Part shown: positions 14,223 to 57,407 of the stretch, one piece after another
Numbering within the stretch: position 1 is the first letter of the stretch
Layout: each line of letters opens with the position of its first letter
Origin: a virus
IMG/VR virus record: IMGVR_UViG_2788500025_000001
Span: 36,163-100,162 of that record
Reading direction: 5' to 3' (one strand)
DNA length: 64,000 bases
Program-made: the position numbers and the translations under genes
The notes under the pieces: generated by a model
The model's input: only the letters and a program-made list of their open reading frames with translations
Told to the model about the DNA's origin: nothing
Databases searched by the model: none

Positions 14223-14540
14223 ATGAGAGATAAGACCCCATCAGTCCGTCGCGTTTTGATGGCGAAGCGCGTGGCCCGCAACTGGCTTCAGGACCACGCC
14301 GAGCCAGAGTACCGGTTGACTGTTTACCGGGGGGCCTCCCGAGAGTCGCGCAACCTGCCCGGCCTGCTCCGGTCCTTCCGGGACGGCAGGATCAAGTTTG
14401 GCAACACCGACCGTGTGCCTGACCTGGGCATCAAGGTGGCTTTCGACTCCATCACAGTCTGGTCGAAAGACAAGAGCCGCCTGCAAGGTCTGGAGGCAGC
14501 CCTTCAGAAGATGGGCTGCGAGACCACGGGAGTTTTCTGA
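14223..14540 (+). CDS. Hypothetical late protein (KRVARNW leader)
   Basis: Follows the motif; carries the RVA motif. Confidence 0.7.
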   Translation: MRDKTPSVRRVLMAKRVARNWLQDHAEPEYRLTVYRGASRESRNLPGLLRSFRDGRIKFGNTDRVPDLGIKVAFDSITVWSKDKSRLQGLEAALQKMGCETTGVF

Positions 14541-14968
14541 TGGCCGCCTCCCTCGCCCAGTCCGAGTTCGTCTACAGGTCGGGCACGAGCCCCGACATCT
14601 ACACGTTCACCATCACTTCCGATTCCCAGGGGAACCTGTCGGTGCGGGACATCGAAGACCCTTATGGGTTCGTGATCTCGCCGTACACCCAGATCCCCCA
14701 GAGCGTGACCGCCGACATCTCGTCCGCCATGTCAGCAGTGGAGACTATTTTGGCACTCACATCAGCCGTCAACGGCACCCTGACCTTCACCGCTGAAACA
14801 TCGAAGTCCGTGACCTTCGCCGAGGCGTTTGCCGACACCTCGTACCGGGTCCAGACGACCTCCGACATCTTTGCCCCCTTCCGTATCACAAACAAGACCG
14901 TCCTGGGGTTCACCATCCAGGCTGGTGCTACCGTCACAGCGAACGTCGGGTACGACGTCTTCGTGTGA
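14540..14968 (+). CDS. Putative structural protein; C-terminus paralogous to ORF 41032
   Basis: Beta-rich; NKTVLGFTIQ..VGYDV versus NKTATEFRIE..VGYSI. Confidence 0.65.
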   Translation: MAASLAQSEFVYRSGTSPDIYTFTITSDSQGNLSVRDIEDPYGFVISPYTQIPQSVTADISSAMSAVETILALTSAVNGTLTFTAETSKSVTFAEAFADTSYRVQTTSDIFAPFRITNKTVLGFTIQAGATVTANVGYDVFV

Positions 14969-14972
14969 TCCA

Positions 14973-15015: not shown

Positions 15016-15864
15016 ATGACCACACTCCCCATCGAACGATTCGCATCCGAGCGCGAGGCCGAGAAGTTTGAAGCCGAGGCCGAAGCCGCCAACGCGCAGG
15101 CCGAAGCCGACCGCCAGAAGGCCGACGCCTCCCGCTTGAAGGAAGGAGCCGGTGGCCTCTACGGCTACACGAAGGGCACCCAGCGGGACGTGGAAGCGTC
15201 TGTCCGCAAGGCACAGCGCCGGGCCGCCTCCGTCGCGAAGGCTCTCTACGCGAAGGACGAGCGGAGCGTGGACTTCTTGAAGGCACATGTGAAGCGGGCC
15301 AACAGCAAGACTGCCCGCCTGATCCTGGCTGCCATGAAGAACCTCGGACCCCGCGTGGCATCCGAGATGCTTCCCAGCGAGCGTCACGTCGCCCGAGTGG
15401 CTGCCGAGGAGAAGGTCGCTGGTGGCCTCTACGGCTACCCTACGAAGACCGCCCGGCTCGCCCTGGTCGCTTGCTCCGATCTCCGTGCCTACGTTGGGGA
15501 GGTTGCCTACAACCTCCACAGCCGCCGCACCGCGAAGTACGCGAAGATGACCGGCTTCCTCAAGGAGCACGGCAAGACCGCCAAGTGCGCTTACTCCCGC
15601 ATGATCCTGGACTGCTACCCCGACGCCCCGGTGTCGAAGGAAGCGAAGGAGAAGTACCCCTGGCCCGAGTGCATCAAGGACCAGGAGAAGGAGTACGGCA
15701 GCAAGGAGATCGCCGAGAAGGTCTGCGGCAAGATCAAGTCACAGTCCCAAGGCAAGAGCGCAGCGGACCAGATGCTCCGCAAGGCTTTTGTGCCTGACTC
15801 GGTGGATGCCTGGCTGGAGTGGGAGGACGGCACCCGCACGGCTGCCACTCGCCGCCGTGCTTGA
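15016..15864 (+). CDS. Hypothetical virion protein with duplicated GGLYGY module
   Basis: Two GGLYGY units, RVA and KTA/KSA motifs, CI..C mini-domain. Confidence 0.75.
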   Translation: MTTLPIERFASEREAEKFEAEAEAANAQAEADRQKADASRLKEGAGGLYGYTKGTQRDVEASVRKAQRRAASVAKALYAKDERSVDFLKAHVKRANSKTARLILAAMKNLGPRVASEMLPSERHVARVAAEEKVAGGLYGYPTKTARLALVACSDLRAYVGEVAYNLHSRRTAKYAKMTGFLKEHGKTAKCAYSRMILDCYPDAPVSKEAKEKYPWPECIKDQEKEYGSKEIAEKVCGKIKSQSQGKSAADQMLRKAFVPDSVDAWLEWEDGTRTAATRRRA

Positions 15865-15953
15865 CAGGATGGCGAGGAGCGGTCGCTCCCTCACACCCAT
15901 CCCCACCCCGAAGACATTGACGAGTGGAACCCCGTGATCAACCAGGACGACAC

Positions 15954-17612
15954 ATGAGCCAGAACACCACAGACAAGCAGGCGTACCTGAACGCCACTCC
16001 CATGCAGAGGGAAGTGGTGCGTCGGCTGCTGTGCGATGTGTTGGGGTGTCTCCGAGCGCAGTATCTCTCGTACCAGACGAGCCATTGGCAGGTCGTTGGG
16101 CAGTCCTTCTACGGCAACCACCTCCTTTTCAACCGGCTCTACGAGTCTGTCATGCTCCAGATCGACTCTCTCGCCGAGAAGTTGGTGGGCTACCTCGGAC
16201 GTGAGGTCGTTGATCTCAACCACCAGATGCGGCACATCACGGGCTACACGATGGCCTGGTCCCAGATCGACTGCCACCACAAGCGAGGCATCCGGTCAGA
16301 ACAGGACCTCCAGGCTGCACTCCGGCGAGCCTACGATGGGATCAAGCAGGCACAAGCCATGACCCTGGGCCTCGATGACTGGATCATGGCTACAGCCAAC
16401 GCTCACGAGGAGAACGAGTACCTCCTCCAGCAGGCGCTGACCCCAGTGCCCGGACAGAAGCAGGCTGGAACCTACGACCGCTACCCTTCCATCCGCGTAC
16501 CACGAGGATGGCGTCCTTCCGCAGACCAGAGCGAGGGTTGCACCGAAGAGTACATGGACGAAGTCTCTGAGGACTTCACCAAAACCTCCGAGACCTTCAT
16601 CAAGCGGGCGATTCTCCCAGCCCTCAAAAAGCGCGGCTGGGGCGCGGAGTCCCATGGGGTCACGGAACCTCTCTACTCGGAGGACGGGGCCACTGTGGAG
16701 GTAGAAGTCTGGGGGAGAGCCGGACAGAAGATCGGTCTCGGAGGTCGGAAGTACATCGTCCTTGACCGGGATGTGTCCAGGGTCGTCGAGATCATGATGA
16801 TCCCGAAGTTGGCGGACGAGACCTTTGAAGGGTCCGAGCAGTTCGACGTAGACGAGTTCGCTGAATGGTCATGGGAGGCAGAGTGCCCCACGGACGAGAT
16901 CCGCGCACTGGGGTACTCCGGTTCCGAGTTTGCTCCCACGCCCAAAGGGGTCGAGGAGTTGCTGGGAGCCTTTGATCGCGACTGGATTCGCTCCAGCCGG
17001 GTCCGCTCCAAGATCCAGAAGCGGGCCAAGTTCAACCCGAGCAAGCGGGAAGACCTCATTGGCTACTTCTTTGCCCTGCATGACCAACTGGAGCGGGAGT
17101 TCACCGCTACCCCAGACGAGATCAAGGGCATGTCCAATGCCTTGCTCCGTCGTCGGACCATGCAGATGGCCGAGCAACTGGCCGACTCGCATGTCAGGGG
17201 GATGACGGGTGAGGAGGCCGTGGAGGCTGCCAAACGCGCTGCTCCAAAAGCCTACCGCTGGATGCTGCGCGTATTGGGAGAGCGGAAGTTGGCATCGACC
17301 GATGAAGCCTACTTCTACAAGGCCCCCGACCAGCGTGCCGTCCTGGAGTTTGCTCGGAGCAACGCCATCTCCAACGATGTGGCCGTTGCAGAAGACGCAG
17401 CCAAAGAGGACCACCTGGACATTCCCGAATCCCAGGCCATCGCTGAAGCCGAAGAAGCCCCGCCGCTCCCCACGGAGATCGCGAAGGAGCCTGGCGGTGC
17501 AGCGGTGTCCACACTGAACCAGTACGTCATAAAGTCAGAAGACCCCGTGGCTGAGGAAGCCGTTCCCATGAACGAGTCCCGCATGGCAGCCTGGCTCCAG
17601 GAGTTGACCTGA
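15954..17612 (+). CDS. Dps/ferritin-like domain fused to unknown modules
   Basis: SHWQVVGQSFYGNHLLFNRLY..IDSLAEKL ferroxidase pattern, flanked by KQA sites. Confidence 0.8.
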   Translation: MSQNTTDKQAYLNATPMQREVVRRLLCDVLGCLRAQYLSYQTSHWQVVGQSFYGNHLLFNRLYESVMLQIDSLAEKLVGYLGREVVDLNHQMRHITGYTMAWSQIDCHHKRGIRSEQDLQAALRRAYDGIKQAQAMTLGLDDWIMATANAHEENEYLLQQALTPVPGQKQAGTYDRYPSIRVPRGWRPSADQSEGCTEEYMDEVSEDFTKTSETFIKRAILPALKKRGWGAESHGVTEPLYSEDGATVEVEVWGRAGQKIGLGGRKYIVLDRDVSRVVEIMMIPKLADETFEGSEQFDVDEFAEWSWEAECPTDEIRALGYSGSEFAPTPKGVEELLGAFDRDWIRSSRVRSKIQKRAKFNPSKREDLIGYFFALHDQLEREFTATPDEIKGMSNALLRRRTMQMAEQLADSHVRGMTGEEAVEAAKRAAPKAYRWMLRVLGERKLASTDEAYFYKAPDQRAVLEFARSNAISNDVAVAEDAAKEDHLDIPESQAIAEAEEAPPLPTEIAKEPGGAAVSTLNQYVIKSEDPVAEEAVPMNESRMAAWLQELT

Positions 17613-21324: not shown

Positions 21325-22017
21325 ATGTCTTTCAAAGCCCACCTACGTTCCATCCTTGCTTCCGAAGGGCTGCTTCCCTCAGATCGTGTTGCGGGCAGGT
21401 CCATGCCACGCCTCGACTGGATGATCCCGACCGCTGAGAAGGGAGGGGCGCGTGAGGAGAAGATGTCTGACGGGATGCTTCGCGTCTGGCGGTGGGACAC
21501 AGACCACGTCCACAAGCGCACCGGCAACCCCTACACTCGCTACCACCTGCTGGTGGGGTCAGCCTCCAAGCGGGCGAAGAACGCCCTGGCCTGGGAATAC
21601 CACACCTCAAAGGCCGCTCGGGACAAGGCAATCGACTCCTGGGTTTCCTACTACGACCGGAAGGCTCAAGAGAAGGCTGACCGGCAGGAGGCCGCCAAAA
21701 ACTTCCAGCATGGCCTCCAGGTCGGAGACATCCTCTCCGCGTCCTGGGGCTACAACCAGACCAACGTGAACTTCTACGAGGTCACGCGAGTCGTTGGGAA
21801 GGCAACCGTGGAGGTCCGAGAGGTTCAGTCGAAGGTCGTCCGCGAGTCCGGCCATGCCCTCTACGTCGTGCCTCGCAAAGGCAAGTGGACGGCTCGCAGC
21901 ACCACCATGAAGAAGCGCGTCAGCCCCAGCGGGCACGTCAAGATCAACAGTTCCATTTCCGCCTCCGAGTGGAGCGGCAAACCCATGTACGAAACGTCAC
22001 CCTACGCAGGCCATTAG
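21325..22017 (+). CDS. Leader-A protein with GDILSASWGYNQTNVNFYEV domain
   Basis: HLRSILASEGLL leader; RBS AGGAG. Confidence 0.75.
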   Translation: MSFKAHLRSILASEGLLPSDRVAGRSMPRLDWMIPTAEKGGAREEKMSDGMLRVWRWDTDHVHKRTGNPYTRYHLLVGSASKRAKNALAWEYHTSKAARDKAIDSWVSYYDRKAQEKADRQEAAKNFQHGLQVGDILSASWGYNQTNVNFYEVTRVVGKATVEVREVQSKVVRESGHALYVVPRKGKWTARSTTMKKRVSPSGHVKINSSISASEWSGKPMYETSPYAGH

Positions 22018-22026: not shown

Positions 22027-22356
22027 ATGAAGTCCCTGACAGCATCCGACCGCAAGACCCTCATTCGCCTGGCCTCATCCCTCCCCGTAGGTGACGAGAC
22101 CCGCAAGGCCCTTATCAACGGACTCGCCCAGACCCGTGAAGCGGGCCGCCCCTGGGGCGGCGACGGCTACGCGGCGAAGGCCGAGGACTACGACATCCCT
22201 CCCGCACAGGGGGGCAGCGGCTCCCCGCCGTGCCAGCCGAAGGGTGACGGACCCTGCTACCGCAAGCATCACGAGTACGGCGCGGCCAACAGCGGTGCCA
22301 ACGGCTCTGCCGCCCGGCGCAAGTACAACGAGTGGTATCGCGAAAACGCGATGTAG
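22027..22356 (+). CDS. Leader-B small protein
   Basis: LTASDRKTLIRLASSLPVGDETRKAL leader; AGGAG RBS. Confidence 0.75.
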   Translation: MKSLTASDRKTLIRLASSLPVGDETRKALINGLAQTREAGRPWGGDGYAAKAEDYDIPPAQGGSGSPPCQPKGDGPCYRKHHEYGAANSGANGSAARRKYNEWYRENAM

Positions 22357-23722: not shown

Positions 23723-24187
23723 ATGCCCCGCAACCTTACTGCCGCCGACCGGTCCACCCTCATTCGTCTTGCCTCGACGCTTCCTGTGGGGAGCGAGGAG
23801 CGGAAGGCCATCCTCGCCGGGCTCGCTGCCGAAGGTCTGCTTTCCGACAAGCAAGCCTCTCGCCCCCCTCTGGACAAGGAGCAGATCGCCGAGATCGAGA
23901 AGGAGGGCTGGCCCGACATGATGTCGCAGGCTGAGGCGTCCGACTGGGCCGTGAACACGATCCGGCAGGCATGGCGGGAGCGAGGCATGGTCGGAAAGCC
24001 CGAACAGATGATGCGCGAGGAGTTCGACCGCATCCGTAAGGGGAACCTCGACTATCTCAAGTACCTCCGGGTGAGCCGTGCTGGGTCGAAGTTCCGTATC
24101 GACCGGGCGATGCGTCGTGCGATCTACATCCAGTACCTCGCCAAAAACAAGAAGGTGAAGTCCGAGTTGTGGCGCAGGCTCCGGTAG
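23723..24187 (+). CDS. Hybrid leader-B/A small protein
   Basis: LTAADRSTLIRLASTLPVGSEERKAILAGLAAEGLLSDKQA. Confidence 0.75.
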   Translation: MPRNLTAADRSTLIRLASTLPVGSEERKAILAGLAAEGLLSDKQASRPPLDKEQIAEIEKEGWPDMMSQAEASDWAVNTIRQAWRERGMVGKPEQMMREEFDRIRKGNLDYLKYLRVSRAGSKFRIDRAMRRAIYIQYLAKNKKVKSELWRRLR

Positions 24188-24224: not shown

Positions 24225-24596
24225 ATGGGCAACCTACGCAACATCCTTTCCGAAGAGGGCCTGCTTTCCGACAGGTTGAAGACCGCTGGAGGCACCGGAT
24301 GGCCTCTCACCCCGAAGGACATCAAGGTCGGGCTGCGCCGCATCAAGAAGGTCTGCTACGACTCTGGGGCGTTCCGAGAGGCTTTCCTCGATGGAATGGA
24401 TTGGGGGAGGGTCGAGTTCGACAAGCCCGAGAAGAACCCCTACCGATCCAGCGGAACGCTTGTGTGGTGGCGGGTGTACCCAATGGGCAAGGTCGGAGAC
24501 AAGAAGAGTGACTACATCTACGGCTATGTGATGACCGAATGGGTCAGCGGACCCAAGGGCATCGAGATCTCTGGCACGGTGACCGTCAAGCACTGA
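24225..24596 (+). CDS. Leader-A small protein
   Basis: NLRNILSEEGLLSDRLKTA; AAGGAG RBS. Confidence 0.75.
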   Translation: MGNLRNILSEEGLLSDRLKTAGGTGWPLTPKDIKVGLRRIKKVCYDSGAFREAFLDGMDWGRVEFDKPEKNPYRSSGTLVWWRVYPMGKVGDKKSDYIYGYVMTEWVSGPKGIEISGTVTVKH

Positions 24597-45626: not shown

Positions 45627-47797
45627 GCAACGACAAGAACGCTGAACTCGACATCCTCGCAGAAGCCTTCCTACCCTCCGACCTTTTGACCCCTTCGCTG
45701 GGGTCCAACTACGGCATGGATGGTTACCCCGACATGGAGTACAACATGGGTGTGCTCGATGCCGTGGTGAACCCCGAGTACCATGAAGCCCCCGCTCTCC
45801 CCTCAGGCATTCGCATGACTGCCGCTGCGGAGTTGGATGTTCAGGACATCCTGGATGGGCAACCCCTCGCTGACCTGGATTGGCTCGACCCGAGCCAGAT
45901 GCAGGATGAGGACCGTCTTCCTGAAAACCCTGTGGATCTCGGAATCCCAGAACTCATTGAGGCATGGGGTGTGAACCGCCGTACTGACGGCACACACCTC
46001 ACAGCGCACCATCGAGACCTCACCCGTGCTCGCTACGAGCAGTCCCTTGAGGGGCAGGGTGAATCGAAGCGCGTCAACGCTCGCACCATGGAAAAGGTGA
46101 TCACACACGCTATGCGCCGGTCCATTGAGGGACAGCACATTGACCGTGTGGTGCGCGAAGCCGCCGAGAGTCTGGGAACCGAGTTCAAGCGCATCGTCCC
46201 CCACCTCCGTGCCGTCAAGGCGGATCACGGACTCGCAGGGAACGTCTTCATCCGAGCCTCTGCCTACCCCGGATGGGGTGCAGGCAAAGGCAAGGTACAC
46301 GCGAAGAAGCACGCCAAGCAGGCCCGCTACCTCATTGTCTCCGAGCGGGACATGGAGCAGGCTACCTGGATTCAGAACGGTCGCTGCGCCTACACGGGCA
46401 AGGTGGCTGTGACCCAGGTTCCCTGGAAGCAGGCTCTTGCTTTCTATGCGCCTCGGCTGGAAGCCACAGGCCGGAAGGTTGCATCGGGTGATCCGAAAGC
46501 AGCACTCCGGGCAGCCTTCCTGACCAACCAAGTCCAGCGTGTCGCCCACGGTGAGCATCTCCCTGTCTACAAGGCAGCGGGCGATGATCTCACTGCTGCG
46601 GAGGCACGCCTCGCCGTGGACCAGGCCGACACCACCCGCAAGGTGGTCGAGGTCACGGAAGCCCACGTCCGGCAGCGCCTTGCTGCCTGGCGTCAGGCCC
46701 ACATGCTCGACGACATGCAAGTGCGATCCATCATCGACAGCGCGGCCTCACCCAACGACAAGTTGGCCGCAGCGGTCGAGATGGTCACAGCAACCCGACA
46801 CGGCTCCTTCACCGGGGCCGTGAACCGTGGGGAGGATGCGGCGCAGGAGCGCCAAGAACGCACCCTCGCTGCGAAGCGGGAACGTCGCCAGGCCCACAGC
46901 GAGCGGTTGGCTGCTCTTTCCGAGCAGCGCCGTCAGGAAGACATCAAGGCCCGTGTGGCTACGGTGATCAAGCACATCGAGCGTGGTGCTCGTGGTTCAT
47001 ACCTGCGGAAGATCATCGCGAAGACGATCCCACAGGAGTACGCCGCCACCGCCACCTCGATGCTGCTGCCCACCCTCAAGAAGACGGGCGCTCTCCGCGA
47101 CTCCGTGGCAAAGGTCGCCTCCTACGACGGGCCGACCTTTGAGGCCGCCCAGCCAGAACGCGAGTCGGTCACGCTGACTGCCCACGAGAAGTCTCTCGTC
47201 AAGGCGGCGTCGGCTGGGGACACCAGTGTTGGGGTCATCCGAAACACCCTCCAGACCATCCGCAGGGCGATGTCCGAAGGTATGGCTGGCAAGGACTTGT
47301 CCGGGTTCATCAACCTGCGGTTTACCGAGCGGGTCCTGACTGCCTCCTCAGACCTCATCGCTGAGGTCCGGGGCCGCCATGAAGGGGCTTCCGGTCACCT
47401 GTATGTCGATGCCGAAGCATACGCCTCCCCCACGGGATCAGGCGGTTGCGAAAAGGCGGCGTCGAAGCACCGCGCCAATCAGGTCCCCTCGGTGGCTGCG
47501 ATGCCCCGATGTGGCTCCTGCACAAAGGCGCGTGCTCTGGAAGACGGCACCATGAAGTGTGGCGTCTACAACAAGGCACTCCTGGAGGACACCACAGGAG
47601 CCGAGATCGACCAGATCCGGGCAGCCAACATCAAGGGCGCGGACATGAACGATGCTGAGGTCACGGCTTCGATGTTCGCACCGACCTACGACCCCTCAGA
47701 GTTCAACCTTCACAACGCGAACCTGGAAGGCATCAGCACACCCCTCCCTGAGACCGAGAAGTTGTCTGAGATTCTGTTCGGTGGTTGGTCGCTGTAA
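45623..47797 (+). CDS. Large hypothetical virion protein with Cys-rich C-terminal region
   Basis: ATGA overlap; C..CGSC..CGVY; KAA sites. Confidence 0.7.
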   Translation: MSNDKNAELDILAEAFLPSDLLTPSLGSNYGMDGYPDMEYNMGVLDAVVNPEYHEAPALPSGIRMTAAAELDVQDILDGQPLADLDWLDPSQMQDEDRLPENPVDLGIPELIEAWGVNRRTDGTHLTAHHRDLTRARYEQSLEGQGESKRVNARTMEKVITHAMRRSIEGQHIDRVVREAAESLGTEFKRIVPHLRAVKADHGLAGNVFIRASAYPGWGAGKGKVHAKKHAKQARYLIVSERDMEQATWIQNGRCAYTGKVAVTQVPWKQALAFYAPRLEATGRKVASGDPKAALRAAFLTNQVQRVAHGEHLPVYKAAGDDLTAAEARLAVDQADTTRKVVEVTEAHVRQRLAAWRQAHMLDDMQVRSIIDSAASPNDKLAAAVEMVTATRHGSFTGAVNRGEDAAQERQERTLAAKRERRQAHSERLAALSEQRRQEDIKARVATVIKHIERGARGSYLRKIIAKTIPQEYAATATSMLLPTLKKTGALRDSVAKVASYDGPTFEAAQPERESVTLTAHEKSLVKAASAGDTSVGVIRNTLQTIRRAMSEGMAGKDLSGFINLRFTERVLTASSDLIAEVRGRHEGASGHLYVDAEAYASPTGSGGCEKAASKHRANQVPSVAAMPRCGSCTKARALEDGTMKCGVYNKALLEDTTGAEIDQIRAANIKGADMNDAEVTASMFAPTYDPSEFNLHNANLEGISTPLPETEKLSEILFGGWSL

Positions 47798-47807: not shown

Positions 47808-49175
47808 ATGGCTCTTTCCAGGGCATCAGTCCATAGGGTAGCCCGCCGCAAGCAGGCTGAGATGGAAACGGAGGGGGCCAAGGCACTGATGAAGTGGTTG
47901 GCTCGCCACGTCCGTGGGGCGAAGCATATCTATGTCGTGGGCGGCGCGGTTCGGAACTACAAGATCGACCAGCCCGTCAAGGACATCGACATGGTGGTGG
48001 ACTCGCTCAATCTGGGCAAGGACGCCGCCTGGGTAGCGGAACACATCGCTCACAAGATCCCTGCTCAGACGAGGATCGAAGGGCCTGACAACCTCCGGGT
48101 CACCAAAGTCCACATCAAGAGCCCCTGGAGCATCGACGGCTACGAGATGGAGGGTGAAACCCTCGACATCGTTGACGCTCGCACAGAGGAGTACGCCAGG
48201 GACCCGGAGACAGGGGACTACGTCGGCCACAAGCCGATCCGGGTGGACCCCACCACAATGGAAGACGACGTGACTCGACGGGAGTTCACGTTCAACACTC
48301 TGATGTGGCGACTCAGCGAACTCGCCAACGGCCCGGACAAGGCCGAGATCATCGACATCACCGGCTGCGGGGTCAAGGATCTGGAGAACCGTGAGATGCG
48401 GTGCCCAGGGGATCCCGACGAGGTGTTCGCGATTGACCCCACCCGCATCATCCGCATCATCAAGTTTGCCTTCAAGTACGGCTTCAAGTTGCCCCCCGAC
48501 GTGAAGGCGGCAGCGAAGCGCCAGGTGAAGGGGCTCAAGCGCATCCCGACGAAGGCGTTTGAGGCGATCAGGAAGATCGCGTTGGACAACCCGGACTACA
48601 AGAAGGCCATCGGTGTCATGGAAGACCTCGGCGTGATCGACGTCATGGCCGAGATGATGGAGTCCGATAAGCAGTTTCGGTCGTCCATGACCAACTACGC
48701 CGAGAAGCGGGGCATCGCCTACCTGTTTTACATGATGGACAAGGGCCTGCCGGTCGGGGCCTCGTTGAAGTTCCTGGACCGAGCGCAGCAGCAACGGTTT
48801 CGGGAGATCACCGCTCCCATGGACCGTGACGAGGCGTTGGACTTCCGTGCGGCTGTGAGCAATCCCGGCAACGTCTACGACAAGAAGTTCATCCCCACCC
48901 TCGCCGCGACCCTCGGTTTCAGCAAGAAGCAGATGCGGGACCTCATGCAGGTGGTCCTTCCGATTGGCCGAGAGGCCCTGTTGCGTGACCCCAGCCTCAA
49001 GGACAAGCCATCGGCGTTGATGCGCCAGGTCGAGCAGGCCGCAAAGCGAGCCATCCCTACTCGGGTAGCCATGCGCTGGGCTGCGACCGGTAAGGAATCC
49101 AGGCTCCAACGCATCCAGATGAAGCGGGAAGCCTCGGCACGTCTCCGTGCTGCGTGGCGGGGCGAAGATGGCTGA
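47808..49175 (+). CDS. Class II tRNA nucleotidyltransferase / poly(A) polymerase family enzyme
   Basis: YVVGGAVRN..KDIDMV, DARTE, RREFTFNTL, DPTRIIRIIKF. Confidence 0.88.
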   Translation: MALSRASVHRVARRKQAEMETEGAKALMKWLARHVRGAKHIYVVGGAVRNYKIDQPVKDIDMVVDSLNLGKDAAWVAEHIAHKIPAQTRIEGPDNLRVTKVHIKSPWSIDGYEMEGETLDIVDARTEEYARDPETGDYVGHKPIRVDPTTMEDDVTRREFTFNTLMWRLSELANGPDKAEIIDITGCGVKDLENREMRCPGDPDEVFAIDPTRIIRIIKFAFKYGFKLPPDVKAAAKRQVKGLKRIPTKAFEAIRKIALDNPDYKKAIGVMEDLGVIDVMAEMMESDKQFRSSMTNYAEKRGIAYLFYMMDKGLPVGASLKFLDRAQQQRFREITAPMDRDEALDFRAAVSNPGNVYDKKFIPTLAATLGFSKKQMRDLMQVVLPIGREALLRDPSLKDKPSALMRQVEQAAKRAIPTRVAMRWAATGKESRLQRIQMKREASARLRAAWRGEDG

Positions 49176-52100
49176 CCCGAAGCGCATCGCAGCCCTCCAC
49201 AAGCAGGGGGGCATCTACAAGCCTATGTCGGAGATCACTCCCGGCACTCAGGACTTGCTCGACTCGCCGACCCCAGCGTGGCTGGATCGCGACTACCCCT
49301 ACGTCGCACCCCCAGGAGAAGACCACACACTCCAGGAACTCGACTACCTGGTCTCGCTGATCCCCCTACGGGAGAAATGGGCCTCGTTCATCAAGGCAGC
49401 CGACGAGGACATGACCCCTCTGTTCGTCACGCTGTGTTCCGAGTTGGGCGCACCGTGCGATGTGGACGCCCTCAATGAGATGGCCTCCGAAGCGTCCATC
49501 CTGATCACGAAGTTGAAGTGGCTCTACAACAGGCCGCGCCCCTACCAGGTCGCCGCCAAGCATCTACGCCTGTCGGGTCAAGGAGGAGTCTTCAAGAAGG
49601 GGGACTTCTCGGTCATGGGCACCACGAGTGCCCACTCCCCGGCGTACCCGAGCGGCCACACCATTCAGGCTCACCTGATGGCCTCACGGTTGAGCGAGAC
49701 CTCTCCACAGCACCGTAGGGCGTTCATGGATCTCGCCGAGAAGGTGTCCTTCTCCCGAGCCGTTGCGGGCTACCACTGGCCGAGTGATCTCGCGTTCGGA
49801 CAGGACATCTTCCGCCACATCGTCATGCCCCTGATGCCCTCGGCTGTCCGTGTTGCCAAGACCTTCACGGTGAACAAAGGCGACCTGGTTTGGTATGGCA
49901 AGTACAAGAACCAGCGCGGCAAGGTCAAGAACTTCGGCATGAGCGACAAGGGTGATCCCACGGTCACCGTCGAGCAACTACCGAGCCCGTCCGCCCGGAA
50001 GCCGAAGAAGAAGTCTCCGAAGACCATGAACCTGTTCAAGATCCGCCCTCGCAAGAAGGACGAGCACGACGAGGCTGCGGACAAGACTGCTGGTGGATCA
50101 CGGACGCTCTACCACGTCGGCAAGCGCCCAGCGCAGCCTCAACCAAAGCGTGCCGAGTGGCGTCAGCGGGGACAACCGGAGCCTGACTGGGTGCGCCCAT
50201 GGCTCGATGCACCTGTGTCGAAGGGTGTCTTCCTGACCCCCAACCCGTTCCTGGTTGCTCCAAAGCACGGTGTGTTCGGTCACGTCTATGCCTACCAGGT
50301 GCCCAACTGGGTCATCAAGCAGGCCAAGGGCATCAACCGCAAGGATGGGGTCAGCGAGGTCTTGATCCCCGAGCCGTTGTGGGAGCATGTGAAGTTCAAG
50401 GGCAAGTCCATGGACCGAGAGGACTTCCTGAACCAGGTTTACAGGAGCGAGGACGCCGCCTTCACCGGATCACGGGCGAACAAGTACCGCACCAAGTCGG
50501 ACTGGGAGGCGCTTCGCAGCACCAGGCTGGCCGCATCGAAGGCTCTCTCCAAGAAGAAGGTCCCGAAGGCAGACGGGTCGGGCACCACGACCGTCTACGA
50601 GTACGGCCCGCGCCAGGTGGCTCAGAGAAATAAGGAGAAGGCTGTTCGCATCGAAACCCTCCGCAAGAAGATGGGGGACCTGCGCAAGAAGGCACAGAGT
50701 GACCTCACTGCAAGTGATCCTGAGACCAGGCTTGCGGCCCTGGCTGTGTGCTTGATGGACGAGACTTATGCACGGGTAGGAAACGAGAAGTCCGCCGAGG
50801 AGGGCCATCATGGGGTCACCAACTGGTTGGCCGACCATGTGACCCTGGGGGACAAGGCAGCGACCATCCGCTACACCGGCAAGTCCGGGGTCAAGCAGGA
50901 GAAGAAGATCACCAACTCCCGTGTCCTTGCGGCGCTCCGAAAGGCCCTGGAAGGCAAGGGCAAGGGCGACAAGGTGCTTTGTGACGGGGACGAGTGCTCG
51001 GTCCTGGCGAAGGACGTGAACGCCTACCTCAAGCCTTTCAGCATCACCGCGAAGGACATCAGAGGTCTACATGCCAACGAGGAAATGAAACGTCACCTCA
51101 GGGACCAACGCAAGGCTGGCCCGGACCTCCCTCGCTCCAGGAAGGAGAAGGACAAGATATTGAAGGCTGAGTTCAAGGCCGCGCTGGAACTCGCTTCCGA
51201 TGCCGTGGGGCACAAGGACTCCACGCTACGCAGTCAATACCTGGTCCCCAGCATGGAAGAAGCCTACGTCCACGACGGCACCGTGTTGGACCGCCTCGAC
51301 AAGAAGGCCACCCTTTCCGACTCCGAGAAGGAGGAGCGAGAGGCCGAGCGCCTGGTCCGCCAGTCTCCGAAGTTGAAGCCGCCCCGCCGCGACAAGGAGC
51401 GAGGCAGGATCAAAGACACTGATCCCGACACCGACCCAGACGAGAAGCAGGATCGGAAGGACCGGTCGAACAACTACAAGGATGCCGCAGTGGCGAAGGC
51501 CATGCGGAAGTACCTGGCCCTGACCGCAGGTACAGCGAGGTCGAAACGCCGCCGGAAGAGGCAACCATCATCCCGTGAAGTCGCTCGCCGGAAGCAGCAG
51601 TCCGACACTGCGAAAGGGTCGAAGCCTAAGGCCCCACCGAAACTCAAGGAGGCCCCCGCACCGGGCAGCGGGCGTAAGAAGCCGAATGTTGGGGATACCT
51701 GGAAACCCGAGGGTAGTGACAAGTGGTCCGCAAAGAGCAAGGATGGCACTGAGTCAGGCTTTGCTTCCCAGGAGGCCGCGAAGGCGTGGTTGACTGGAGG
51801 GCCTGGGCCTGGTGCGTCCGGTGACACTGCTACTGATTCCTCCCCCGCTGCCGACACGGCCCCGAAGCCTCCTGACAAGAAGCCTTCCGCAAAAGGGCGG
51901 CTGACTCGTAAGCAGAAGCGCGAGATGGTGGACGCCCTCGTTGCAGATCTGGCGAAGGGTGCAGCAGCCGTCCTGAGCAACCTCCCGGAAGACCTCCTCA
52001 AGGAAGTCGGGGACGCCCTCGGTGAACCCGCACGGGCCGTCGTGGACGCCCTGTTGGGTATTGGTACGGAGGCTCTTCAGGAACGGGCGACCTTCGCCAG

Positions 52101-53325
52101 AGCCACGTTGAAGCGTGTACCCACCAGCAAACGCCCGACCGCCGAGCAGGTTGCCGCTGCTGAGACCCTTGTGGAGGAGGATGAGGACGGCCTGGAGTCC
52201 CTACAAGATCAGTTGGATGATCTGGAGGGATCTGCTCCTGACAGTTCCAGTGAGGATTCCAAGGCACACAAGGCCAAGGTCACGGCCCTCAAGGCGAAGA
52301 TCAAGAAGATCGTAGCCGCCGAAAAGACCATCCAGGCCGCTGAGGAGTGGGCCAACGCACCCTCTCCCGCAGAAATCGCAGAGTCTCTCGTGGCTCTCAG
52401 GTCAGTCGAGGTCCGCAACGACCCTCTCTTGCTGGACCTTTCTAACCCCATCACCAATCTCTCCACGGACCCCCTGAACCTGGAGGGTGGTCCTCAAAAG
52501 CAGTTCATGGGCGAGATGGGCGACCTCACGGTGTCAACCGCCTCCGAGTACCGGGCGTTGTCCAAGAAGGACCGTGACTCACACAGGCAAGGGTTGGCCG
52601 ACCACATGCAGGCGTTGGAGGACAAGGGTCAGACTGACACGAAGCAGTACCATCACACCCTCGCTCAGATGCGGGGCCTCCAGATGGCATCCGCACTGGA
52701 AGATGGTGACGATGCCACTGGAGTCTCAGCGGAGTTTCAGACCTTCCTCAAGGCCGCCCAGTCTCAAGGCGCAGAGGTGCTGGACAAGTTCATCAAACTC
52801 AATGTCACCGGAGCCGCCGAAGGGGACGTAGATGCCCAACAGCAGTTTCGGGATGTCCTTCGCGGAGTACCTCCTGCGGAACTCAGGACGATGGTCCCCC
52901 AAGACAACCCGGCAGCCGAAACCCTCGACATGATCACGGGGGCGCACCTCACAGGCAAGAGGAAGGAACTGTGGTTGGGCAGCATGGACGATGAGACCCG
53001 ACAGTTGCTCCAGGAGCACGCCGAGGACATGATCATGGATGAGATCATGTTCACGGACATGGATCTCGTCCGGGCCGGGAAGTCGGTGGGCCAGCAGAAG
53101 AAGAAAAGCGGCAAGCAGAAGAAGCAGACCGCCGAGCGGGCAACGCGGAGAGGCAGGAGGCACAAGTCCGTCCTCGATGAACTACGCAAGAAGTGGGCGA
53201 AGATGCGTAACCAAACCCTCCACTCTCTTTCTTCGGCCCTCTTCGGCACACCCCCATCCACAGCAAAGACCTCTGACCTCAACGCCCTCCAGGCGTATGA
53301 CTTTCACCCCTGGGGGACCCTTTGA
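49168..53325 (+). CDS. Polyprotein: PAP2 phosphatase + SH3/KOW-like + ART-like + topoisomerase IB + unknown C-terminal domain
   Basis: KWLYNRPRP/PSGH/SRAVAGYHWPSD; LYH..GVFLT..EVLIP; RVGNE, GKSGV, KDIR, GH, SQYL. Confidence 0.88.
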   Translation: MADPKRIAALHKQGGIYKPMSEITPGTQDLLDSPTPAWLDRDYPYVAPPGEDHTLQELDYLVSLIPLREKWASFIKAADEDMTPLFVTLCSELGAPCDVDALNEMASEASILITKLKWLYNRPRPYQVAAKHLRLSGQGGVFKKGDFSVMGTTSAHSPAYPSGHTIQAHLMASRLSETSPQHRRAFMDLAEKVSFSRAVAGYHWPSDLAFGQDIFRHIVMPLMPSAVRVAKTFTVNKGDLVWYGKYKNQRGKVKNFGMSDKGDPTVTVEQLPSPSARKPKKKSPKTMNLFKIRPRKKDEHDEAADKTAGGSRTLYHVGKRPAQPQPKRAEWRQRGQPEPDWVRPWLDAPVSKGVFLTPNPFLVAPKHGVFGHVYAYQVPNWVIKQAKGINRKDGVSEVLIPEPLWEHVKFKGKSMDREDFLNQVYRSEDAAFTGSRANKYRTKSDWEALRSTRLAASKALSKKKVPKADGSGTTTVYEYGPRQVAQRNKEKAVRIETLRKKMGDLRKKAQSDLTASDPETRLAALAVCLMDETYARVGNEKSAEEGHHGVTNWLADHVTLGDKAATIRYTGKSGVKQEKKITNSRVLAALRKALEGKGKGDKVLCDGDECSVLAKDVNAYLKPFSITAKDIRGLHANEEMKRHLRDQRKAGPDLPRSRKEKDKILKAEFKAALELASDAVGHKDSTLRSQYLVPSMEEAYVHDGTVLDRLDKKATLSDSEKEEREAERLVRQSPKLKPPRRDKERGRIKDTDPDTDPDEKQDRKDRSNNYKDAAVAKAMRKYLALTAGTARSKRRRKRQPSSREVARRKQQSDTAKGSKPKAPPKLKEAPAPGSGRKKPNVGDTWKPEGSDKWSAKSKDGTESGFASQEAAKAWLTGGPGPGASGDTATDSSPAADTAPKPPDKKPSAKGRLTRKQKREMVDALVADLAKGAAAVLSNLPEDLLKEVGDALGEPARAVVDALLGIGTEALQERATFARATLKRVPTSKRPTAEQVAAAETLVEEDEDGLESLQDQLDDLEGSAPDSSSEDSKAHKAKVTALKAKIKKIVAAEKTIQAAEEWANAPSPAEIAESLVALRSVEVRNDPLLLDLSNPITNLSTDPLNLEGGPQKQFMGEMGDLTVSTASEYRALSKKDRDSHRQGLADHMQALEDKGQTDTKQYHHTLAQMRGLQMASALEDGDDATGVSAEFQTFLKAAQSQGAEVLDKFIKLNVTGAAEGDVDAQQQFRDVLRGVPPAELRTMVPQDNPAAETLDMITGAHLTGKRKELWLGSMDDETRQLLQEHAEDMIMDEIMFTDMDLVRAGKSVGQQKKKSGKQKKQTAERATRRGRRHKSVLDELRKKWAKMRNQTLHSLSSALFGTPPSTAKTSDLNALQAYDFHPWGTL

Positions 53326-53363: not shown

Positions 53364-53432
53364 AGTGCTGCCCTATGGGTAGGACTTGTTGTGCAAGCCC
53401 TTACCGGGAATCCACCTCTTTCGGAGAACACC

Positions 53433-53867
53433 ATGGCCAAACTGACCCGACAGGGAGCACGCAATCTGACTGCTACCCTCGACCGCATCGCTTCCGCAGT
53501 ACAGGAAAACCCTGCACTGCTCGGCATTGACATCAAAATCGCAAAGGACTTCGCGTACCGTTGTGATCTCATCTCGGACGCTGTTGAGCGTACCGCTGTC
53601 ACCAACTTTCCGAAGCAGGCTGACATCAACAGTGCTGTTCCCAGTGCAGGCGGCGAGTACGACACCGCGAAGCCTGGCATCGAGAAGGAAATCGGCGCTG
53701 AGGTCAAGGGTCCCATCTATGAGGAAGACCCCTCGGACGATCAGGACATCAAAGGCCACTTCACCCAGGCTGACTTTCACCAGTTGACCGAACTGGCCGA
53801 GAAGTTGAAGACCGCCGCCCGCAACGGCACGGTCGTCAGCGACCACGGATTCAACCTCACCAAGTAG
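53433..53867 (+). CDS. Hypothetical head protein
   Basis: GGAG RBS; KQA and KTA sites. Confidence 0.7.
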   Translation: MAKLTRQGARNLTATLDRIASAVQENPALLGIDIKIAKDFAYRCDLISDAVERTAVTNFPKQADINSAVPSAGGEYDTAKPGIEKEIGAEVKGPIYEEDPSDDQDIKGHFTQADFHQLTELAEKLKTAARNGTVVSDHGFNLTK

Positions 53868-53875
53868 GAGGCACC

Positions 53876-54451
53876 GTGCGTCGGTTTGCCGAAAACTACG
53901 TCAACTACCAAGAGCGGGCCACCGAGTTTTCTGTCGGAGACGTCGTGGTGCCGTTTGGCCTGTGGGATTCCCAGAGCGGTCGTGTCACGGCTGTGTGGCC
54001 TGCTATTGGTATGGTGGATGTAGAGTTCCCATCCGGCAACGCACGCTTCCCCGTCGAGGAACTTCAGCGCATGGGCGCTGATGGGCAGGCCGAACCGCCC
54101 AGAACGGACTCCGCTCCGGGCGGGGGTGGGTCTGTTTCTGTGCCGGGTGGTCCGTACCCAGACAAGAAGAAGGCAGCCAATCGTGTGGCGCGGGCGTTCG
54201 TCAAGCAGTCCCTTTACTGGGCGCAGAAGGACCGCCAGTACCGCATGACAGGACCAGAGAGCGTGGAGGGGAAACCCAACTGCCCAAAGTGTCCTGAGAT
54301 CCCTCTCCAGAAGGCGATCTACAAACGCCGCGACGGATCCAGCGAACGGCTCCAGGGCTGCCCTGGTTGCATGTTCCTCATCAAGGACGCGGACATTGTG
54401 AACTTCGGCCCTGTTAGTGCCGAGGAGATTGAGATCGAGGGGCAGGGCTGA
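53876..54451 (+). CDS. SH3-like plus Zn-ribbon head-associated protein
   Basis: VGDVV..GRVTAV..VDVEF; KKAANRVARAF; CPKC..CPGC. Confidence 0.7.
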   Translation: MRRFAENYVNYQERATEFSVGDVVVPFGLWDSQSGRVTAVWPAIGMVDVEFPSGNARFPVEELQRMGADGQAEPPRTDSAPGGGGSVSVPGGPYPDKKKAANRVARAFVKQSLYWAQKDRQYRMTGPESVEGKPNCPKCPEIPLQKAIYKRRDGSSERLQGCPGCMFLIKDADIVNFGPVSAEEIEIEGQG

Positions 54452-55890
54452 TGGCTTTCCTCAAACGTGCCAATGCTATGGTCGTCCATCCCCGCATCTC
54501 TGGACGCGGTTGGGGTGGGATCCGCAAAACGGCTTCGGCAGGGTCCTCCCGGAACCTGACTGACCAGGCGCGGGAAATCCTCGGAGGATCGCTGTCGTCC
54601 GACGACTACCTGGTCACGCACTGCACCATCGTGGCGTCTGTAGACACCGACAAGGCCCCCAACGTGAAGTTGGGCAACGTCAAGGTCGGCACCCAGACGG
54701 TCAACAGACAGTGGGACGACTACCTGATCAAGCCCTCGTCCTCCCAGTTTGTGAACAACAACGGCGACTCGTGGAGCCGCCCGGTGCTGAGGATGGCGTA
54801 CCCGACCTTTATTGGGGCGCACAACTTCCGTGAGCACGTCCAGATCGAGGACCAGTCGAAGGGCCGGATCATCGACGCCTGTGCTCGTGACATTGGTGAC
54901 TCCCTCTATGTGGACATCCTGGTTGCCACGAACAAGAAGCACGCGGCGCTCGTCCAGGACATCCAGTCAGGCAAGATGGCGACCCTCTCCATGGGTTGCA
55001 CAACTGACTTCACGACTTGCTCTAAGTGCGGTCACTTCGCTGTGGACGAGACCCAGTTGTGTGATCACATCAAGTACGCGAAACTCAACACCTTCATGGA
55101 CGATTCCGGCCAGAAGCGTGTGATCGCAGAACTCTGTGGACACCAGTCCTACGACGAGAACCCGGACGCCCCTGGTGGGGTCAGGTTCATCGAGGCTTCC
55201 TGGGTCGCGGTTCCTGCGTTCCCCGGTGCCGTGATGCGGAACATCCTTGATCCCAGCGCGGCGTCCGACGACCAGGTTCGCAAAGTGCTCGCCTCCCCTC
55301 CCCCTCAGTGGTCAGACCACGCGGTCGCAAAGGCCGCGTCCATGTCGGCCCTTGCCTTCGACTTCGGTGGTGGCGGGGATGATGAGGACGACGCCCCTGC
55401 AAAGGACGAGAAGCCATCGCCCCCGTTTCAGGGGATCGAAGATGCGGTGTACGAAGCCCTCAAGGTCCGAGTCAGGGAGCGCCTGGAGCGCGATCTCGCC
55501 CAGAAGGCTGTTGAGGATTCTGAGCCGGAACCTGATGGCACAATGGAGCCGAACGACTCCATCATCAAGGAAGGTCGAGCACACTCGACTTCAGTCAAAG
55601 CACTTGTTCGTGTAGCCTCCTCCGAGGTCGCTCTTGTAGACGGTATTGCTTCCGTTGACGCCGCGCATGGTGTCAAGGTTGCACGCCACCTCTACAGAGT
55701 CGCCCTGGCGGCGGGGGTTCCCACCGAACACCCTTCTCTTGACCGTTACCTGTTTGCCTGTAAGAAGGCGGCGGGACGGGATCTGAGTACTGCCGAAATC
55801 CGGGTTGTTGTCCGGGTCGGCACCCTGTTGGCCCAATGGGCTGACAATAACAACCCCAAACCCCACTATCCTATGAGGAGACTGCCATGA
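54451..55890 (+). CDS. Prohead (capsid maturation) protease, putative
   Basis: Lies before scaffold and MCP; HNFREH, LSMGC..CSKCG, FIEASWVAVPA. Confidence 0.7.
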   Translation: MAFLKRANAMVVHPRISGRGWGGIRKTASAGSSRNLTDQAREILGGSLSSDDYLVTHCTIVASVDTDKAPNVKLGNVKVGTQTVNRQWDDYLIKPSSSQFVNNNGDSWSRPVLRMAYPTFIGAHNFREHVQIEDQSKGRIIDACARDIGDSLYVDILVATNKKHAALVQDIQSGKMATLSMGCTTDFTTCSKCGHFAVDETQLCDHIKYAKLNTFMDDSGQKRVIAELCGHQSYDENPDAPGGVRFIEASWVAVPAFPGAVMRNILDPSAASDDQVRKVLASPPPQWSDHAVAKAASMSALAFDFGGGGDDEDDAPAKDEKPSPPFQGIEDAVYEALKVRVRERLERDLAQKAVEDSEPEPDGTMEPNDSIIKEGRAHSTSVKALVRVASSEVALVDGIASVDAAHGVKVARHLYRVALAAGVPTEHPSLDRYLFACKKAAGRDLSTAEIRVVVRVGTLLAQWADNNNPKPHYPMRRLP

Positions 55891-57407
55891 GCCGTCAACG
55901 AATGACTTGGACAGACGCTGGGGTGTCTCGGCACGCCTCCGAGCACCCTGCAACCCCCGACGAGGGACCCGCTTCCCCCGCCCACAAGGCCCAGCCCGGC
56001 CCCGACGCCTACAAGAGTGGAGACACTTCTTCCTGGGCTGAGGACGTGCATCCTGGCCCCTACGCGAACGGTGAGCATCCTGCCACCCCCGACGAGGGAC
56101 CTGCCAGCCCTGCCTACAAGGCTGCCGCCCTGGAACGCAAGGCTGCAAAGTGCATCCGTCTCGCTACCGCCATGCTCGGTGAGGGTGCTACCGTCGCCGC
56201 CATCGAGAACCAGGCCCTGGAACTGATGGACCTTCCTGACCGTTCGATCAAGGCCAGCCTCTCCCGGCTCGCTGAGGACGCCGACGAAGCCATCGACGAT
56301 GACGACGCCGCCGAAGCCGAGGCCGATCTCGCTGAGGAAGGCAAGAAGAAGGCTTCTGTCTCCGACCGCATCGCTCGTCTGGAGCGCGTGCTCATCAAGT
56401 TGGCTGAATCCGAAGACCCTGAAGGTGACGGCGACGACTCCGAGTCCGAAGACCCCGAGGGTGACGACGACGACGACGGCAGCGAAGACCCCGGCGAAGA
56501 CGAGGACATGAAGAAGTCCGCGTCCGACGACGAGGACGACGAGGACGACGACGAGTCCATGCAGAAGAAGTCGGCCCTTGAGCGCCGCATGGACCGCATC
56601 GAGCGCGTCCTGCATCGCCTGGCTGCTGGCAAGAAGGACGACGGTGAGTCGAAGGGCGACCAGTCCAAGACCCACATCGACTATGCCGACGCGAAGGACG
56701 GCGACAAGGAGACTGGCCACGGCGAGTCTGCTGGCGATCAGTCCAAGTCCCACGAGGACTACGAAGGCAAGAAGGCTTCCGACCACGACGACGACGAGTC
56801 CATGGATGACGAAGAGTCGAAGAAGAAGGCTGGCTGGGAGCCGGGTCACCGTGCTGAAGGTGGCTGGGACCCCGGTCACATGGAGTCCATGAGCGACGAG
56901 GAGTCCATGCTGGAAGAGATGATGCTGGAAGAGATGCTTGCCGAGGAGAGCATGGATCAGAATGATCCCGAGGCTTTCTACGGTGATGATCCTTCCGGTG
57001 ATGGTGTTCCTGAGGTCATCGAGGCCGAAGGCGTCGTTGAGTCCATGATGGACCCCATGGGTCTGGACGACGAGATCGTGGAGGAGGATGACATGATGAT
57101 CCTCGCTTCCCTTTTCGGCAAGGAAGCCGACCTCAAGGATGAGGACAAGAAGGAGAAGGAAGACCACGACAAGGGTGCCATCGCCGACGACAAGGACCAC
57201 ATCGAGAAGTTGGAGAAGGACGAAGACGAGGACGCTGAGGATCTGGAGAAGGAGGAGTCGAAGAAGAAGGCTTCCCTCCGTCCCCAGCCGAAGCGTGCCA
57301 GCAAGGGTGCAAAGACCCTCGGTGGTGTGTCGAAGGAAGCGGCTTCTGAGGTCGGTGATCTCAGCAAGTTGTGGGACTCGGCTCCTGACGTGTCTCGCTT
57401 CTTCTAA
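55887..57407 (+). CDS. Capsid scaffold/core protein
   Basis: Extremely acidic, low complexity; many KKA/KSA/KEA sites; EHPATPDEGPASPA x2, EDP(E/G) x3. Confidence 0.75.
   Translation: MSRQRMTWTDAGVSRHASEHPATPDEGPASPAHKAQPGPDAYKSGDTSSWAEDVHPGPYANGEHPATPDEGPASPAYKAAALERKAAKCIRLATAMLGEGATVAAIENQALELMDLPDRSIKASLSRLAEDADEAIDDDDAAEAEADLAEEGKKKASVSDRIARLERVLIKLAESEDPEGDGDDSESEDPEGDDDDDGSEDPGEDEDMKKSASDDEDDEDDDESMQKKSALERRMDRIERVLHRLAAGKKDDGESKGDQSKTHIDYADAKDGDKETGHGESAGDQSKSHEDYEGKKASDHDDDESMDDEESKKKAGWEPGHRAEGGWDPGHMESMSDEESMLEEMMLEEMLAEESMDQNDPEAFYGDDPSGDGVPEVIEAEGVVESMMDPMGLDDEIVEEDDMMILASLFGKEADLKDEDKKEKEDHDKGAIADDKDHIEKLEKDEDEDAEDLEKEESKKKASLRPQPKRASKGAKTLGGVSKEAASEVGDLSKLWDSAPDVSRFF

Follow-up and report, generated by a model that had tools for sequence, protein, structure and literature searches.

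The late proteins encoded by a huge, uncultured myophage of the Bacillus phage G clade carry recurrent [KR]-x-Ala tripeptides after leaders and between domains, which raises the question of whether these mark sites at which a protease of the phage matures its head proteins and their putative cargo. The sequence analysed here (the window) is a stretch of 64,000 nucleotides, bases 36163–100162 of the 141-kb IMG/VR record IMGVR_UViG_2788500025_000001 (CheckV completeness 31%), and comprises the structural region of the phage, with late genes that all lie on the + strand and have a G+C (GC) content of ~61%. A reading of the DNA letters alone, hereafter the original prediction, proposed that the protease encoded at 54451 cuts after alanine at these tripeptides and thereby frees a diverse, modular set of injected effectors. 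The comparisons and structural models described below indicate that [KR]-x-Ala is probably a specificity variant of the known scheme of capsid targeting, prohead protease and internal proteins.

Motif counts in the late open reading frames (ORFs; 14190–57407) were compared with residue shuffles within each protein, a null model that keeps composition. K-x-A was found 131 times where 88.7 were expected (z 4.8) and ranked first among the 400 (i,i+2) residue pairs; L-E and I-E, the pairs of the T4-type motif (L/I)-x-E, were outside the top pairs. The early ORFs showed no excess (12 versus 13.6 expected), in line with the late-gene enrichment that had been anticipated. No excess was found in the late ORFs for KA, K-xx-A, K-xxx-A or A-x-K, which were flat or depleted, and this argues against an effect of composition or helix. 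The excess of R-x-A was weaker (z 2.9), and part of it stems from the consensus of the portable tags described below and from an RVA motif. Carriers of the K-x-A excess are the scaffold, the protease, a Dps protein, the ORFs at 42603, 45521 and 15016 and the portal; none was detected under the same null in the tail sheath, the terminase, the SNF2 helicase or a polyprotein taken whole. With residues numbered from a putative cut after alanine (P1), a logo of the flanking positions gave only weak preferences outside P3 and P1, namely Q, T or K at P2 and S or K at P1′. Serine at P1′ was enriched 2.0-fold, and alanine at P1 is fixed by the motif definition. P2 was mostly Q, T, K or A across sites, and Q, T, S, E, V or K at leader ends.

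A pattern of this kind could be an artefact of Lys/Ala-rich helices, of low complexity or of examples picked by eye, and the late proteins are indeed rich in both residues, some R-x-A copies of the scaffold fall within heptad-like RIAxLERVL repeats and the genome-wide rank of K-x-A is modest; nevertheless, the z-score given above was obtained with composition-preserving shuffles, the excess persists at 30–42% GC, and no comparable signal was found for control motifs in the tests on junctions and on the Dps family reported below. We reject the composition or helix artefact on the offset controls and regard it as hardly credible.

The gene at 54451 was correctly identified as that of the protease. 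In addition to its match to a PHROGs family of head maturation proteases (Table 1), its AlphaFold2 model (mean predicted local distance difference test score, pLDDT, 81.7) aligned with T4 gp21 (5jbl_A) at Z 10.9 and a root-mean-square deviation of 3.0 over 146 of 165 residues in a wide VIA-align search, and with the herpesvirus proteases of varicella-zoster virus (1vzv_A, Z 7.1) and human cytomegalovirus (8j3s, Z 5.2). The top Foldseek match was likewise 5jbl, with a probability of 0.96 and a borderline E of 1.4e-3. No Pfam family, S77 included, matched at E ≤ 0.01, and no PDB sequence match was obtained. The model has the assemblin-like beta-barrel fold of the gp21/assemblin proteases (MEROPS clan SH) and consists of a catalytic domain (aa 1–257, pLDDT >90), a disordered linker (aa 258–321) and a helical C-terminal domain (aa 327–467). 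Residues H57, H129 and S180, the last in an SMGC motif, are invariant in an alignment of 42 homologues (35–57% identical), as are four cysteines around this motif. The gene order, with the protease (54451) followed by the scaffold (55887), a 203-aa protein and the major capsid protein (MCP; 58300), is the same in relatives.

Assemblin-class proteases read P3 and P1, with (L/I)-x-E in T4, (S/A/G)-x-E in phiKZ and (V/L/I)-x-A↓S in herpesviruses (the arrow marks a cut or putative cut). The 42 homologues together hold 244 K-x-A against 126 expected, and the window protease has 9 against 3.0. Three positions are kept as [KR]-x-A, at aa 5–7, 294–296 and 387–389, and the K-x-A within the catalytic domain are not conserved in the 42 homologues; the RKTA that had been quoted is present in the protein and is not conserved in the family. 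At aa 294–296 the basic residue is found in 39 of the 42 homologues, the alanine in 38 and a following serine in 22. This KAA↓S lies in the protease's own linker, inside a stretch with pLDDT <50 (aa 290–321), and its conservation there looks like self-processing.

The protease gene itself also varies in length. Its orthologue on the related contig G003 (L009:8093-10888) has 931 residues, with a Hint/intein-splicing insert from ~residue 210, near SMGC. Many members of the family, for which 1424 cluster representatives were found at E ≤ 1e-3, measure 900–1800 aa with a protease match split around residues 185–205, which suggests from sequence that inteins are common in this gene.

The acidic scaffold holds 14 K-x-A; the original prediction had noted about eight KKA, KSA or KEA there. 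In an alignment of 12 scaffold sequences, KKA or KxA form conserved islands amid hypervariable acidic sequence, and the 12 orthologues sum to 143 K-x-A against ~56 expected. More widely, 13 related loci whose GC contents range from 41 to 63% show the excess in protease and scaffold alike. Phage G has 8 copies in its protease gp19 (2.5 expected) and 7 in gp21 (2.8 expected), and Tunturiibacter phage Tunturi_5 has 16 in gp332, at the scaffold position (5.6 expected), and 19 in gp328, annotated 'DNA ejection protein' (8.8 expected). K-x-A is also the top pair of gp94 of the Bxz1-type mycobacteriophage Rizal (19 versus 8.3 expected). This last protein (L062:5989-10101), annotated 'tape measure', is encoded directly upstream of the MCP and begins with a prohead-protease domain (..SVSMG..C..C..C.H) followed by long extra domains; the annotation looks wrong. 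Pairwise orthologue alignments were scored for how often both residues of a pair are conserved together; by this measure K-x-A ranked first of 170 pair types with G003 and second of 94 with contig G001 in the late proteins, against ranks of 76–82 in other proteins.

The portal has 5 K-x-A against 2.1 expected, among them the AKTA noted in the original prediction. Its position, ahead of the conserved core, is occupied by KTA in G003, RTA in G001, RIA in contig G002 and KMA in phage G gp14, and a [KR]-x-A ~40 residues from the N-terminus is found in all relatives and phage G. The candidate KLA of the MCP is kept in near relatives and absent at phage G, which leaves that site uncertain.

Two leader families, A (LRxILASEGLL) and B (DRSxLIRLASTLPVGSxERKAILAGL), recur in five contigs, where they are carried by dozens of proteins that are poorly conserved and otherwise unrelated. 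In 9 of 11 leader-A proteins and 14 of 20 leader-B proteins (23 of 31 in all), a [KR]xA ends no more than 8 residues beyond the tag, compared with 7.6% under the null. Where the tag is C-terminal, [KR]xA directly precedes it, as in IQKKA↓DLRAILAEEGLLKQG. In a relative with 42% GC the tag has diverged (IRLAH..PELRK.LLPLL), and its end is once more KEA, KKA or KQA. All examples quoted in the original prediction were found in the genes named, including the leader ends SDKQA (ORF at 23723), RLKTA (24189), LSKQA (31730), LEKSA (32269), LLKTA (40343) and TREA (22027), the RKQA that follows a 17-aa leader ahead of the nucleotidyltransferase (47808) and the DKQA↓Y and QKQA↓G that flank the Dps domain (ORF 15924–17612). 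Several longest-ORF starts are probably too far upstream (47652–47807, 45521–45622, 15924–15953 and 24189–24224); the true starts are likely 47808, 45623, 15954 and 24225, which would place the leaders at the extreme N-terminus.

Two further observations concern the tags. An RVA-x-R-aromatic motif recurs: RVA is present 20 times in the late proteins, and the middle position of R-x-A shows a 2.3-fold enrichment of V. The motif is often found at protein termini and immediately next to K-x-A sites (for example 47808–47858, 44931–45626, 35531–35719 and 32563–34242), and it might represent a third tag for targeting or docking. In addition, the scaffold segment RKAAKCIRLATAMLGEG (56130–56190, aa ~82–100) loosely resembles the LIRLASTLPVGS core of leader B, but profile comparison gave this resemblance no support, and the likeness of leader B to the scaffold segment RKAAKCIRLATAML was not significant in a hidden Markov model search.

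The sites were claimed to lie at domain borders, and they do occur at module junctions, in linkers and beside the portable tags. The clearest case is the four-module Dps protein (8 K-x-A versus 2.7 expected), in which homology to G003, G001 and G002 breaks at the joint K-x-A sites and module X is a separate gene in G003. In its AlphaFold2 model the four joint sites are unstructured, three of them in segments with pLDDT <50 and the fourth, K169-A171, where pLDDT drops from ~80 to 46. The four K-x-A outside the joints comprise two in helices, one at a Dps helix end and one in the unpredicted module X. The expected agreement between sites and AlphaFold boundaries was thus seen for the protease KAA↓S and these four joints, and not for the K-x-A in or at helices. 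In the family of Dps fusions (117 members), ..PGQKQA↓ closes the domain and the sequences beyond it are unrelated; a [KR]xA within 8 columns of the Dps end is present in 91 of 118 rows, compared with 13 for A-x-K, 15 for K-xx-A and 5 for E-x-A. The N-terminal [KR]-x-A↓Y is retained where Dps is internal, as in P0200, which has ..SRKA↓YLNA after a C39 domain. Phage G has no detectable homologue of the window Dps protein.

The 1392-aa polyprotein is likewise permuted or split in relatives, with the order HAD_SAK_1, topoisomerase IB, GGSR in G001 and separate genes for topoisomerase IB and PAP2 in G002. Ahead of its GGSR module stands DKTA↓ in the window; in G001, where the module follows topoisomerase IB, AKKA↓ takes this place. 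The topoisomerase IB module terminates with ..L.K[KE]A↓ in G001 and G002 as it does in the window. The nucleotidyltransferase domain is joined to other modules in G003 and G001. In the protein encoded at 42603, the borders of homology blocks (aa 130, 309 and 422) nearly coincide with the last residues of sites (aa 128, 310 and 424). When the BLAST breakpoints of the whole late set were clustered, 10 of the resulting 51 fell within 4 aa of a putative K-x-A cut position (5.3 expected, p 0.03), and control motifs were flat in this test. The module set is highly combinatorial (P0252, P0200 and L028:14816-18583), with fusions of Dps and SAM (S-adenosylmethionine) lyase, of C39-like peptidase and Dps, and of an RNA-repair HAD domain (HAD_SAK_1) and topoisomerase IB; one Dps-family member has Dps joined to SAM lyase (PF23780) behind R-Q-A.

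The same placement could be read by a different protease, either the C39-like enzyme encoded at 32563–34242 or one of the host, or the cut could fall at another bond, for example after lysine. The late region does encode a Peptidase_C39_2 domain, which is joined to the Dps module in relatives, and the sites observed would fit more than one scissile bond. C39 leader peptidases, however, require glycine at P2 (GG, GA or GS), and C39 double-glycine processing was rejected on the P2 residues listed above. Phage G, Tunturi_5 and Rizal moreover show the K-x-A excess together with the assemblin-fold protease and the MCP, and the conserved KAA↓S looks like self-processing. We therefore consider a different protease or bond very unlikely.

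In the model that we favour, the protease encoded at 54451 would recognise lysine, less often arginine, at P3 and alanine at P1, and would cut after the alanine, often before serine or glycine. Inside the prohead it would shred the acidic scaffold at ~14 to 20 sites into pieces of ~25–35 residues, free its own C-terminal domain at K-A-A↓S and trim the N-terminus of the portal. Short address tags (leader A, leader B and perhaps RVAxR-aromatic) would be removed from a variable set of proteins, and multi-enzyme precursors would be split into modules, here Dps, PAP2, GGSR, topoisomerase IB and the CCA/poly(A)-type nucleotidyltransferase, and in relatives additionally SAM lyase and an RNA-repair HAD domain. 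The tags would recruit these proteins into the assembling head by binding a component of the prohead, and the proteins would be packaged, travel with the DNA and possibly be delivered to the host.

Several observations weigh against this model. The late set was delimited as in the original prediction, and over all genes of five contigs K-x-A ranks only 9 to 93, indicating that the signal is confined to a head-associated subset. Positional conservation relative to the most distant contig, G002, was not significant, and the support from the breakpoint test is modest at p 0.03. Although the DKTA and DKKA quoted for the polyprotein are present at its joints, the whole protein shows no K-x-A excess (16 versus 15.5 expected). 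Four K-x-A lie inside the folded topoisomerase IB domain, and with the four in or beside helices or in unpredicted parts of the Dps protein they imply that the motif alone cannot suffice; it looks necessary but not sufficient, as for other prohead proteases. In six of the 20 leader-B proteins, the tag has no site in the next 8 aa. The literature on cultured relatives yielded no proteomic or biochemical evidence of cleavage.

Leader B is also found internally, in up to three copies per protein, so it could be a structural or oligomerisation module instead of a cleaved leader, and a docking module fits this arrangement better than a simple signal peptide. More generally, the tags and the [KR]-x-A linkers might be assembly or interaction modules that are never cut, serving as flexible linkers, docking sites or sites of modification (for example of lysine) in multidomain proteins that stay intact in the head or the infected cell. 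Disordered linkers would host a short linear motif of any function; yet sites are most dense and most strongly conserved in the scaffold and the protease, two classic protease substrates, the motif separates tag from body irrespective of the terminus that carries the tag, and the P3-x-P1 format agrees with the enzyme class. We regard uncleaved modules as unlikely.

If the tagged and modular proteins are processed and packaged as in our favoured model, it is plausible that they are injected effectors, given that the tagged genes are variable and accessory-like, that SAM lyase and RNA-repair modules occur in relatives and that enzymes are reported among the 104 proteins of the phage G particle proteome (PMC12484599). 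Dps and topoisomerase IB, on the other hand, could equally serve the packaged DNA or DNA handling in the capsid, which also counts against the effector reading. A bolder extension, to which we give a slim chance, is a clade-wide plug-and-play delivery code in which a basic-P3/Ala-P1 protease and tags at either end load and release interchangeable modules as a first-wave takeover or anti-defence kit, with the helix-turn-helix tag B docking on the lumenal face of the HK97-fold MCP in an encapsulin-like manner.

Were the favoured model true, mature virion proteins, scaffold fragments and head cargo would be predictable from sequence alone, not only across a widespread and very numerous group of huge phages but also in the mycobacteriophages of cluster C, which are employed in teaching and therapy. 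A basic-P3/Ala-P1 specificity would join those of the assemblin fold, between the x-E enzymes of phages and the x-A↓S enzymes of herpesviruses, and the tag families might serve as handles for bringing foreign proteins into large capsids. The proposed cargo (Dps, topoisomerase IB, PAP2 and CCA-type nucleotidyltransferase, with SAM lyase in relatives) would point to what a megaphage contributes to the cell before gene expression. These expectations are testable in cultured relatives, namely phage G, Tunturi 5 and Bxz1-type phages.

Table 1 Coordinates of the protease, its candidate sites and substrates, the tags and other annotated late genes in the window (K-x-A and R-x-A counts are observed versus expected)
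Feature	Position (nt)	Strand	Basis and remarks
Prohead (head-maturation) protease, 479 aa	54451..55890	+	PHROG 18299 'head maturation protease', E 9e-13
K294-A-A296 then Ser, candidate self-processing site in protease linker	55330..55338	+	Alignment and AlphaFold2
Acidic scaffold, 506 aa	55887..57407	+	14 K-x-A (5.1 expected), 6 R-x-A
MCP, 290 aa, HK97 type	58300..59172	+	Candidate N-terminal site GRAKLA↓AS
Portal	38594..40297	+	Pfam/PHROGs; alignment; N-terminal site RAKTA↓N at 38705–38713
Leader A (LRxILASEGLL ... RVA)	21325..21393	+	230-aa protein 21325–22017
Leader A (... RLKTA)	24225..24287	+	Protein 24189–24596
Leader A (... LEKSA)	32269..32337	+	80-aa protein 32269–32511
Leader A (... 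LLKTA)	40343..40402	+	145-aa protein 40343–40780; kept in G003 orthologue
Leader B (DRxxLIRLASxLPVGxxxRKAxxxGL ... TREA)	22027..22143	+	109-aa protein 22027–22356
Leader B, end LSKQA	31769..31882	+	Protein 31730/31769–32278
Hybrid leader: B, then A-like AEGLL, end SDKQA	23723..23857	+	154-aa protein 23723–24187
Four-module protein: 10-aa leader, Dps/ferritin-like, X, Y, Z	15954..17612	+	ORF 15924–17612; Pfam Ferritin/DUF5856
Joint sites of the Dps protein	15975–15983, 16458–16466, 17019–17027, 17286–17294	+	K-x-A ends at aa 20, 181, 368, 457
Class II nucleotidyltransferase (PolyA_pol head domain) behind 17-aa leader MALSRASVHRVARRKQA	47808..49175	+	PF01743 5e-14; PHROG tRNA nucleotidyltransferase
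1392-aa polyprotein: PAP2, GGSR module, topoisomerase IB, helical tail	49147..53325	+	Pfam PAP2, Topoisom_I
Joint sites of the polyprotein	50083–50091, 51301–51309	+	DKTA↓GGSR; DKKA↓T
479-aa modular protein	42603..44042	+	10 K-x-A (5.0 expected); joint sites 42978–42986, 43524–43532, 43866–43874
282-aa protein	15016..15864	+	9 K-x-A (4.9 expected); 12 R-x-A (4.1 expected)
~724-aa head-region protein, leader MSNDKNA	45623..47797	+	13 K-x-A (4.8 expected)
Two small conserved proteins, 158 and 191 aa, directly upstream of protease	53391..54451	+	K-x-A 3 versus 1.4 and 3 versus 0.8
Tail sheath	26486	+	Pfam/PHROGs
Large terminase	35723	+	Pfam/PHROGs
SNF2 helicase	17612	+	Pfam/PHROGs
C39-like papain-fold peptidase (Peptidase_C39_2 domain)	32563–34242	+	Pfam/PHROGs

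The window was annotated with Pfam and PHROGs. A megablast of the head region against GenBank phages gave zero matches, and protein-level searches were therefore required. These gave as the nearest GenBank records those in which the MCP counterpart is 86% identical in the uncultured phage LR745208 (485 kb); the MCP identity is 50% to the major head protein of Tunturi_5, 40.6% to phage G gp27 and ~30% to those of cluster C (Bxz1-type) mycobacteriophages. Its family, PF25209, has 2070 relatives at E ≤ 1e-10, of which the nearest 120 are at least 87% identical; the protein is unusually conserved (87–99% identity for the nearest 120 of the 2070), whereas the neighbouring scaffold and cargo genes diverge fast. 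The pair of small genes upstream of the protease is found in most relatives, mostly with a K-x-A excess, and orthologues of the ~724-aa protein are present in G003, G001 and G002. The 205-kb contig G004 encodes a protease 100% identical to that of the window, and the last 60 bases of the record recur at its position 52996; this overlap and the identical protease indicate that the two contigs together represent at least ~294 kb of one phage. Further tag-bearing genes lie in the non-overlapping part of G004, for example at 37402, 146761, 176038, 180410 and 189641.

The closest parallel is the T4 system of gp21 and the capsid-targeting sequences of IPI-III and Alt. The two share the protease fold, the P3-x-P1 format of the motif, a scaffold studded with sites, the gene context of protease, scaffold and MCP, and short N-terminal tags in which the same peptide stands on unrelated proteins and ends in the motif, here the putative cut site. 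They differ in that the motif is [KR]-x-A and not [LI]-x-E, that the protease has no Pfam S77 match, that the tags are longer (~20 and ~35–45 aa), fall into two or three families and are found at either terminus or internally, and that the cargo consists of large multi-enzyme precursors with shuffled modules. Herpesvirus assemblin has a related fold, alanine at P1, often serine at P1′ (KAA↓S and KKA↓S in the window phage) and self-release at a linker, which would be shared here; P3 is Lys or Arg instead of aliphatic, and the virus here is a bacteriophage with a separate scaffold gene. Encapsulin cargo peptides are likewise short and portable and direct enzymes, ferritin-like ones among them, into a shell of the HK97 fold, but they are not removed by a protease. 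The TLPVGS of leader B loosely resembles the LTVGSL-type core of such peptides.

The giant phages phiKZ and SPN3US differ from the present phage in lineage, MCP and tags, and in the (S/A/G)-x-E motif of their proteases, whose substrates include inner-body or ejection proteins. What they share is extensive processing of head proteins and propeptides at a short motif, with self-processing of the protease, as described for phiKZ gp175 and SPN3US gp245 (PMC10052503) and suggested by sequence here. In the Dar system of phage P1, an N-terminal signal of ~30 aa loads large enzymes such as DarB into the head for delivery (PMC9024508); unlike the proteins described here, those of the Dar system have no consensus tag in common, and their signal is not linked to a protease motif. 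Our literature search found no paper on a K-x-A specificity in phage G, Bxz1-type or Tunturi phages, on these tags or on this cargo set, in agreement with the original prediction that the specificity had no earlier description. The principle is already known from T4, phiKZ/SPN3US and P1 (PMC10052503, PMC9024508); the novelty lies in the proposed specificity, the tags and the putative cargo.

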